From assembly GCA_017634155.1 (NCBI GenBank), contig JAGBNX010000016.1:9984-73983 (forward strand): a stretch of 64,000 bases of DNA, read 5' to 3'. This document shows positions 16,009-16,904 of this stretch, piece after piece (the stretch's first letter is position 1; every line of letters starts with the position of its first letter). Both the position numbers and the translations under genes were made by a program. The notes beneath the pieces were generated by a model that saw only the letters and a list, made by a program, of their open reading frames with translations, did not search any database and was not told the origin of the DNA. The DNA comes from Clostridia bacterium (GTDB lineage: Bacteria; Bacillota; Clostridia; Oscillospirales; Acutalibacteraceae).

Positions 16009-16904
16009 TTAATTATTAATCAAAATTTGCTTAGCAACATCGTCGTTGTTAAAATATTTAACAAGTGCGTCATAAAAATTTTTTCTGTTTTTTTCTTCCT
16101 GGGTCTTTGGGTTTGCAATATTAAATTCAGCAGTTATGTCTTTCACCTCGTACCTTCCAGGATTTCCGAATGGTTTATCTTCATGCACGATTGTTTTCTC
16201 AAAACAAACAGATAATTTTCCATTATTTGGTCTTACAACCGCTTTATCATAAAAATCAATAAAATTTTCTTGTTTTTCGCTACAAACATTGATGCCGTTT
16301 TTAACAGCAATATTATAAAAATCGGTTTTTAATTTTAAATTATAATCAACGTAATATTTAAACATGCAATCTCTAAAATCAATACTTGCTTTATTCAATG
16401 CCTCGCTTTCCAGTTTTGAATTTGTTACTTCTTTAAAATCGTCCATACACCTCCGCATACTGAAAACAATATACGATTTTTTTTGCTTTTCTAACCATTC
16501 AGAATTATACCTAATTTCCAATCCTCTTTCATCAAATTTAATACCATGTGATTTAAAATATTTACAATATTGAATGAAAAACTTCTTGCCTCGAGCAAGT
16601 TGACCAAACAACGAATTAGCCAAATGATAAACAAGAATACCTAACACTGCACTTACAACAGGACCAGACGCTAATACCCCATATTTTGCTGGCTTACTTA
16701 ATTTCTCAAACCAAGTACTAGCATTGCCGGATATATCTCTATTACTAAAATTCGGATTTGATCGATTAGTCGCCCCCCTACTGTCCCAAGGGTTTGCGGG
16801 CTTTTCACCTGATTTTTGTTTGTATTCATTGCCGAACTCTTACTACCAAAAAGTGCCATGAAAGCCAACGCAACTGCGATTTTTTTTCTATCAAATTTCG
16901 ACAT
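16009..16904 (-). pseudogene. Accessory-family gene (subfamily A) interrupted by a -1 frame break at a C6/G6 tract
   Basis: GGAGGT RBS + ATG 16904 gives MSKFDRKKIAVALAFMALFGSKSSA...TVGG, then stops at 16698. The -1 frame continues ATNRSNPNFSNRDISGNASTWFEKLSKPAKYGVLASGPVVSAVLGILVYH into ORF 16009..16647. One extra G in the run at 16773..16778 restores a single ORF. Confidence 0.75.

Follow-up and report, generated by a model that had tools for sequence, protein, structure and literature searches.

Does a gene that is split at a homopolymer represent a decaying remnant, an assembly error, a recoding site, or one position of a genetic switch? This question is raised by a minus-strand gene ending at position 16009 of a 64,000-nt stretch of Clostridia bacterium DNA (GenBank assembly GCA_017634155.1, contig JAGBNX010000016.1, positions 9,984 to 73,983; the whole of this stretch is referred to as the window), whose frame break coincides exactly with a C6/G6 run at 16773-16778. 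We favour the switch: the locus is probably a homopolymeric-tract contingency locus, in which slipped-strand mispairing would drive ON/OFF phase variation, and the window appears to hold its OFF state. Loci of this kind are well known and it is the setting that is unusual, namely an uncultured rumen commensal (a low-GC (30%) Clostridia lineage from ruminant gut metagenomes), an orphan gene family, and a tract that lies within a shared leader. The LysS of this organism has no more than 60% identity to any GTDB representative, which places it only as far as a Clostridia/Bacillota lineage.

The plus-strand sequence CCCCCC at 16773-16778 reads ACA GTA GGG GGG CGA on the coding minus strand, where it separates two open reading frames (ORFs), 16698..16919(-) and 16009..16647(-), that lie in different frames. 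A frame check of the window sequence demonstrated that adding one G (G7) or removing two (G4) results in a single continuous ORF. With G7 the ORF 16904..16698 is fused to the frame 16776..16009, which stays open until the stop at 16009, giving a protein of 298 aa; G4 gives 297 aa, and the out-of-frame lengths G6 and G8 give products of 68 aa and 51 aa, respectively. The first-pass annotation, made from the sequence alone, had placed the tract at the frame break and proposed that seven Gs would join both ORFs, and both points hold, the latter with an exact G7 allele (below). Its estimate of about 299 aa needs a small correction. The true start is ATG 16904 (MSKF), as a GGAGG ribosome-binding site sits 8 nt upstream of it and ATG 16919 falls inside that site, and the product is therefore 298 aa long, neither 299 nor 303. 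Within the resulting 897-nt ORF the G6 tract occupies nt 127-132 (codons 43-44), i.e. it is close to the 5′ end.

16773..16778, minus strand: G6 homopolymeric tract (C6 on the plus strand), coding the Gly-Gly of the leader motif LGxVGGA
16698..16904, minus strand: OFF-state ORF of 68 aa, composed of the leader and an out-of-frame tail RLIDQIRILVIEIYPAMLVLGLRN, then a stop; identical to protein P0044, found on 4 contigs

The first-pass annotation had also called a G/C run of six conspicuous in DNA this AT-rich, which a count does not bear out. The window contains 3 such runs against ~1.35 expected from its base composition (Poisson P ~0.16), so that a single G6/C6 run, taken alone, is within chance expectation. 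Three features do exceed chance: the run falls exactly on the frame break, the tract is conserved between species and among paralogs, and its length varies. The two other G/C runs of at least 6 in the window, at 8652..8657 and 44441..44452, are both in frame inside intact ORFs: the C6 codes FPPSD in the IspF-like ORF 8458..8940, and G5-A-G6 codes AGGGGISG in ORF 44336..45145. The gene itself has further possible slippage sites in an A8 run in the leader (16880..16887(-); AGA AAA AAA ATC = R K K I) and a T7 run in the promoter spacer (16995..17001(-)), and neither of them changes length among the close strains compared.

Tract-length alleles in related genomes

To what extent is the tract length variable in nature? 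All allele comparisons were made between consensus assemblies, with relatives obtained via a protein database and contig look-ups; a scan of genome and metagenome contig collections with protein alignment and a 36-nt conserved DNA pattern returned no match. A 298-aa protein on 6 contigs (P0019) has precisely the sequence of the window gene after G7 repair, and the two window ORFs are themselves matched exactly by P0020 (212 aa) and P0044 (68 aa). At the DNA level, the locus L098 (sample SRR12529158) carries G7 and the loci L099 (SAMN15830138 / ERZ28655105) and L100 (ERZ27256936) carry G6, and the tract is the only difference between them, with 0 substitutions in 3,039 nt. The window is one base apart from all three, at 15992, besides the tract itself in the case of L098. 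Comparison of strains, which the first-pass annotation had put forward as a test, thus does yield 6 versus 7 with zero other differences over ~3 kb. The existence of an intact allele that is identical to the window gene save for one G (P0019/L098) speaks against a fixed pseudogene.

More distant relatives extend this series:

L001 (96-98% DNA identity to the window): G4, in frame at the tract
L002 and L003 (96-98% DNA identity to the window): G8, out of frame
L004-L007 (sister species, 65% aa identity, different genomic context): G6, out of frame (+1)

The G6 of the sister species is out of frame by +1, and would need to become G5 or G8, because a 1-nt deletion adjoins the tract. Window-type alleles (G7 and G4 in frame, G6 and G8 out of frame) have at least 5 tract states, and as genomes that agree in all else can differ in tract length, the tract mutates far more rapidly than the sequence on either side of it.

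In the window allele the tract is the sole disabling lesion, unlike in L001, L002 and the sister-species alleles. Both L001 (~790) and L002 (~2815) have a 1-nt T insertion in the signal-peptide coding region (GCGTTGTGCTTTCATC versus GCGTTGGCTTTCATG, equivalent to window ~16866), so that translation would end after 20 codons. For L001 (G4), the gene caller begins at the conserved Met past the predicted cleavage site, resulting in a leaderless 273-aa product. In the sister species, P0004 reads FMTYLLNILITTIFL at its 3′ end where relatives have FYDALVKYFNNDDVA, a compensated double frameshift, and other members of the cluster (P0022, P0026, P0027) end at 144 aa because of another frameshift (..FIDFNGSSCETE*). 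All 7 members of the sister-species cluster are truncated, with no full-length allele found among them, and the gene may be decaying in that species.

Architecture and constraint of the repaired gene

The repaired gene, listed here together with its intact paralog, has the following parts, with the structural model being an AlphaFold 2 (AF2) prediction:

16981..17009, minus strand: sigma-70-type promoter TTGACA-17 nt-TACAAT (11/12 match), with the T7 run 16995..17001 in its spacer
16913..16917, minus strand: ribosome-binding site GGAGG, read from the sequence
16830..16904, minus strand: Sec-type signal-peptide-like leader MSKFDRKKIAVALAFMALFGSKSSA, judged by eye, with a positive n-region, a hydrophobic core and SSA before a conserved Met
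16681..16776, minus strand: linker from the tract to the transmembrane (TM) helix (G ATNRSNPNFSNRDISGNASTWFEKLSKPAKYG), translatable only with the frame corrected at the tract
16606..16680, minus strand: predicted TM helix VLASGPVVSAVLGILVYHLANSLFG, then basic QLARGKK; AF2 helix at residues 82-116
16009..16605, minus strand: orphan C-terminal domain (C-domain) of ~198 aa plus the stop codon; AF2 confidence (predicted local distance difference test, pLDDT) 80-95; central part mosaic between strains
15940..15956, minus strand: terminator-like GC-rich hairpin downstream of the gene
12523..13362, plus strand: intact tract-free paralog of 279 aa with the same architecture; ortholog P0008

The leader resembles a type I signal peptide by eye (KFDRKK / IAVALAFMALFG / SSA|M) and is common to P0005-P0007, P0015 and P0028. 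The linker is ~50 aa long, rich in Asn, Ser and Thr, and includes ..SPQTLGTVGGATNRS... Because the basic QLARGKK follows the TM helix, the positive-inside rule places the ~200-aa C-domain probably in the cytoplasm, with only ~50 residues outside. The first-pass description of a surface-type gene thus fits only in part, with a Sec-type leader and a single TM helix, and would apply to the short linker rather than to the bulk of the protein.

The first-pass annotation held that the repaired product parallels the intact paralog at 12523, and it does: the paralog 12523..13362(+) aligns over both halves of the window gene (29% identity, E 1e-16). At the position of the tract this paralog reads GCA AGA GGA GGC, i.e. 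it is without a tract. Pfam, NCBIfam, PADLOC and PHROGs gave no match for the window protein or its paralogs, and a profile search run exhaustively against 1.84 billion representatives returned only 11 proteins. The AF2 model used is based on a 13-sequence alignment (a 6-sequence model was too poor, pLDDT 47), and its C-domain has no match among PDB folds (best E 0.45, TM-score ~0.1). The family is orphan and lineage-specific.

We determined the ratio of nonsynonymous to synonymous substitution rates (dN/dS) on repaired frames between the window and the sister species (dS 0.64), obtaining 0.33 overall, 0.24 for the leader, 0.32 for the C-domain and 0.10 for the linker between tract and TM helix. 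As the linker is constrained although it can be read only in the corrected frame, the full-length frame has been maintained over evolutionary time, and this comparison of sequences indicates purifying selection on the corrected frame in both halves. The downstream ORF is intact in 5/5 lineages. The same linker constraint speaks against a separate downstream gene with its own start, a candidate that was also rejected on the grounds that the in-frame ATG of some strains is GTA in the window. The promoter and ribosome-binding site are retained and canonical, which counts in favour of the switch, and the TTGACA box and its spacing are kept in the aligned sister-species locus L004.

The centre of the C-domain (~residues 118-160; 16100..16560(-)) is mosaic between strains (loci L001, L003 and L004), with L001 resembling the sister-species L004 there though its leader is identical to that of the window. 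Together with a dN/dS of ~1 among close strains, this mosaic suggests recombination or diversifying selection, and relaxed constraint would fit as well.

The tract in other family members

The leader motif ..SPQTLGxVGGA.. occurs in several genes with differing C-terminal parts, and its Gly-Gly is coded by GGG GGG G. At least 3 other genes of the family carry the motif and have both in-frame and out-of-frame tract alleles:

P0006 (L009/L010): G7, ON
P0015 cluster (L096/L097): G7, ON
P0015 cluster (L101-L104, four samples): G8+T, OFF, split into 47 + 196 aa
P0015 cluster: G7+T, OFF, deduced from protein P0033
P0015 cluster: TG6, ON, deduced from protein P0032
P0015 cluster: +3 variant, ON and in frame, deduced from protein P0036
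P0016/P0028 cluster (L095): G6, OFF, 52 + 243 aa
P0016/P0028 cluster: 289-aa allele, ON, known from the protein only
P0046-P0049, a further leader-bearing gene: 2 versus 4 Gly, all truncated, known from protein only

The P0046-P0049 leader ORFs end either in ..LGAVGGRLIIMTLEEL... (63-76 aa, 10 contigs) or in ..LGAVGGGGL (77 aa, 2 contigs), and these differing ends imply that the alleles have G-tracts several bases apart in length. Genes in which the tract is interrupted (GAGGGGG in L011-14, GGAGGG in L008) are represented by full-length forms only, with no truncated form in their clusters, and the tract-free genes (12523, P0008, P0009, P0011 and P0013) were likewise found as full-length proteins only. 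GGG is the rarest Gly codon (9.8%), and only 1/59 Gly-Gly pairs in long ORFs is coded by GGGGGG. As GGG is rare, the retention of the G-run in at least 4 gene lineages stands out, although the leader might instead have spread by gene conversion.

Because the tract lies in an N-terminal leader module common to several family genes, several members could switch independently of each other. A broader proposal, which we hold tentatively, is that the poly-G is a built-in part of a shared leader cassette (..SPQTLGxVGGA.., GTA GGG GGG GCN) heading at least 5 orphan membrane-protein genes; these would then form a combinatorial contingency family of independently switching members, with point-interrupted tracts representing 'locked-ON' versions.

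Not every broken family member has a tract. The member at 35440..36272(+) (paralog 35452) is frame-broken without a homopolymer, and consists in the window of two ORFs:

35440..35619, plus strand: leader ORF of paralog 35452 (59 aa)
35598..36272, plus strand: following ORF of paralog 35452 (224 aa)

Its TM segment GGIVVAGTSAGGVFGLLVTYWL can be read in the -1 frame from ~35543. This break is fixed in the species, as the truncated proteins P0039, P0041 and P0042 account for 14/14 contigs, including a 163-kb JGI contig, and the only intact ortholog (P0040, 273 aa, 73% identity) is from another species. The fixed break also provides a control, since a break that lacks a tract is stable whereas both states are found within one clone where a tract is present. 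At 58875..60511(-) (paralog 60460), a leader ORF (60281..60511; MNKFDKRKIAFVLLFASLLSGKAS..., 76 aa) that ends in TAA overlaps by 16 nt the -1-frame ORF 58875..60278 (467 aa), which starts with the TM segment GLAVLPVLLSALGLAIA. The junction GTTCAATTGGTTTAAAAGTGGGG has short runs only, and the pair resembles a frameshifted gene with a leader, which would be the third of this kind. Similar M-x-K-F-x-K-K-(I/L)-A leaders begin many small ORFs of the window (19245..19886(-), 27966(-), 23450(+), 37917(-) and 55872(-)), and the lineage seems to encode many small leader-bearing membrane or secreted proteins.

Weighing the explanations and comparison with known systems

In the mechanism we propose, the G-run would be a hypermutable tract whose length changes most likely via slipped-strand mispairing at replication, and each change would toggle a bitopic membrane-protein gene between ON and OFF. 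In the ON state (G7 or G4) the predicted product is a 298-aa protein comprising the leader, the ~50-aa linker, the TM helix and the orphan 200-aa domain. In the OFF state (G6 or G8) only a 68- or 51-aa leader peptide would be made, leaving the downstream frame untranslated. The early intragenic position of the tract and its length polymorphism agree with the first-pass proposal of a contingency locus; in the strict sense of high-frequency, reversible switching within a population, that proposal goes further than the alleles themselves. Slippage as the mechanism, its reversibility, a high switching rate and a selective benefit are what we infer from consensus assemblies.

Several observations weigh against such a switch. 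Classical contingency tracts tend to be longer than G6/G7, and a 7-G tract in M. smegmatis frameshifts at only ~3e-8 per generation (PMC10334774). Some of the variants are impure homopolymer slips, with a T added beside the tract (L101-104). The dN/dS among close strains is ~1 or more. Lesions outside the tract (the T insertion of L001 and L002, the truncation of 7/7 sister-species members, the 144-aa P0022 and the double shift of P0004) fit gene decay, and two other leader-bearing genes of the window are broken without a tract. Lastly, if the large domain is cytoplasmic, as is probable, the rationale of a variable surface antigen is at most tentative.

The main rival is a non-adaptive hot spot, in which the tract would be no more than the weakest point of a dispensable and decaying family, with OFF alleles being young pseudogenes. 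The irreversible extra lesions in L001 and L002, the additional frameshifts in some of the truncated sister-species members, the tract-free breaks of paralogs 35452 (fixed) and 60460, the dN/dS of ~1 and the short tract all agree with such a model, which we nevertheless consider unlikely. ON and OFF alleles coexist on zero-substitution backgrounds, with ~6 ON contigs versus ~5 OFF contigs of the same clone; both halves have been under purifying selection in the corrected frame over a dS of ~0.64; the window allele is intact apart from the tract; and the rare-codon sequence GGG GGG G has been kept in several gene lineages although its synonymous interruption is easy and does occur.

Could the polymorphism instead reflect the data, with a true G7 everywhere and the window G6 being a homopolymer consensus error? 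A G7 allele with an otherwise identical sequence exists, and homopolymers are known to cause difficulty for certain platforms and assemblers (as noted for nanH3, bioRxiv 10.1101/2020.09.16.300947). However, independent assemblies of different samples share G6 (L099, L100 and the window, with P0044 on 4 contigs), other strains have G4 and G8, and the same G8+T allele of a paralog was recovered from four samples. The other G6/C6 runs of the window are in frame, and its housekeeping genes show no scatter of frameshifts (the window-wide scan for pairs of frameshifted ORFs has low specificity). Such an error is thus very improbable. We give even less credence to recoding, in which a G6 template would still yield full-length protein, either because tRNA-Gly slips by -1 on the G-run during translation (ribosomal frameshifting) or through transcriptional slippage, and the gene would be constitutively functional. 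A tRNA-Gly reading GGG could shift by one base in either direction (-1 or +1) within the G-run and still pair perfectly, and purifying selection on both halves would be explained. However, the shift needed varies between alleles, being -1 for the window G6, +1 for G8 and the sister-species G6, and none for G4 and G7, and A GGG GGG C, as read from the sequence, is not a canonical X XXY YYZ heptamer. The 83 nt downstream of the tract, examined for a stimulatory RNA structure, fold no better than shuffles (z = -0.14). Efficient transcriptional slippage is known at ~9-nt A/T runs, and G6 is far below this. As in-frame G7 alleles exist, recoding is also not needed. With no conserved shift direction, no canonical heptamer and no downstream structure, a programmed frameshift or slippage site was rejected.

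Returning to the slippage switch, repeat-driven phase variation is documented mostly in cultured pathogens, and here both the ON and the OFF allele of a single clone can be read from public metagenome assemblies alone, in a rumen anaerobe that has not been cultivated, with the tract recurring in paralogs. Annotation pipelines split or truncate such genes into 'hypothetical proteins' of 212-228 aa or 145 aa, and this hides a leader-bearing family. If switching within populations does occur, the family would point to a trait on which selection in the rumen fluctuates, for example through phage or host pressure, and would provide a handle on proteins with neither a fold nor a family match in the libraries searched (PDB, Pfam, NCBIfam, PADLOC and PHROGs).

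A family-wide tract within a leader recalls the opa genes of Neisseria, a multigene family with CTCTT repeats in the leader-peptide coding region whose members switch independently, although the opa repeat is a pentamer and here it is a homopolymer. Campylobacter jejuni, which has a low-GC genome and lacks mismatch repair, has poly-G contingency genes with tracts typically of G8-G13, and the C6 to C7 change in bvgS of Bordetella pertussis demonstrates that a C6 run can switch. These three are pathogens with experimentally shown switching, whereas the host here is an uncultured rumen Clostridia-like commensal.

Two further systems also have short tracts. Listeria monocytogenes inlA is, like the window gene, a leader-bearing gene of a Firmicute with a short homopolymer near its 5′ end (PMC2831843), and natural strains carry single-base frameshift alleles for which reversible inactivation has been argued (PMC2831843). 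It differs in that the tract is poly(A), the gene is single rather than part of a family, and the frameshift rate was measured, at ~1000x the point-mutation rate (PMC2831843). Mycobacterium tuberculosis glpK shares with the window gene a 7-nt G/C tract within the ORF and recurrent +1/-1 frameshifts across isolates, but there the tract is mid-gene, the product is a cytoplasmic enzyme and the organism is high-GC (PMC10334774); homoplasy was quantified on a phylogeny of 31,428 isolates, and the rate is a modest 3e-8 per generation (PMC10334774). Together inlA and glpK show that tracts of ~7 nt can switch, reversibly in the case of glpK, with the rate of 3e-8 warning that hypermutability may be only moderate.

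Finally, for comparison with a secreted protein, nanH3 of Gardnerella piotii has a poly-C tract that directly follows the part coding the signal peptide, ~100 nt from the start of the ORF, and its out-of-frame lengths result in a 37-44-aa leader peptide, upon which automated annotation calls a leaderless downstream ORF (bioRxiv 10.1101/2020.09.16.300947). The nanH3 tract is 8-14 C long, mixed lengths in cultures were shown experimentally and the product is a known secreted sialidase (bioRxiv 10.1101/2020.09.16.300947), compared with 4-8 G, between-assembly evidence only, and an orphan with a probably cytoplasmic domain and a leader common to paralogs for the window gene. Nevertheless, with a G/C homopolymer after the signal-peptide region, a short OFF peptide and length variation between strains, nanH3 is the closest anatomical match to the window gene.
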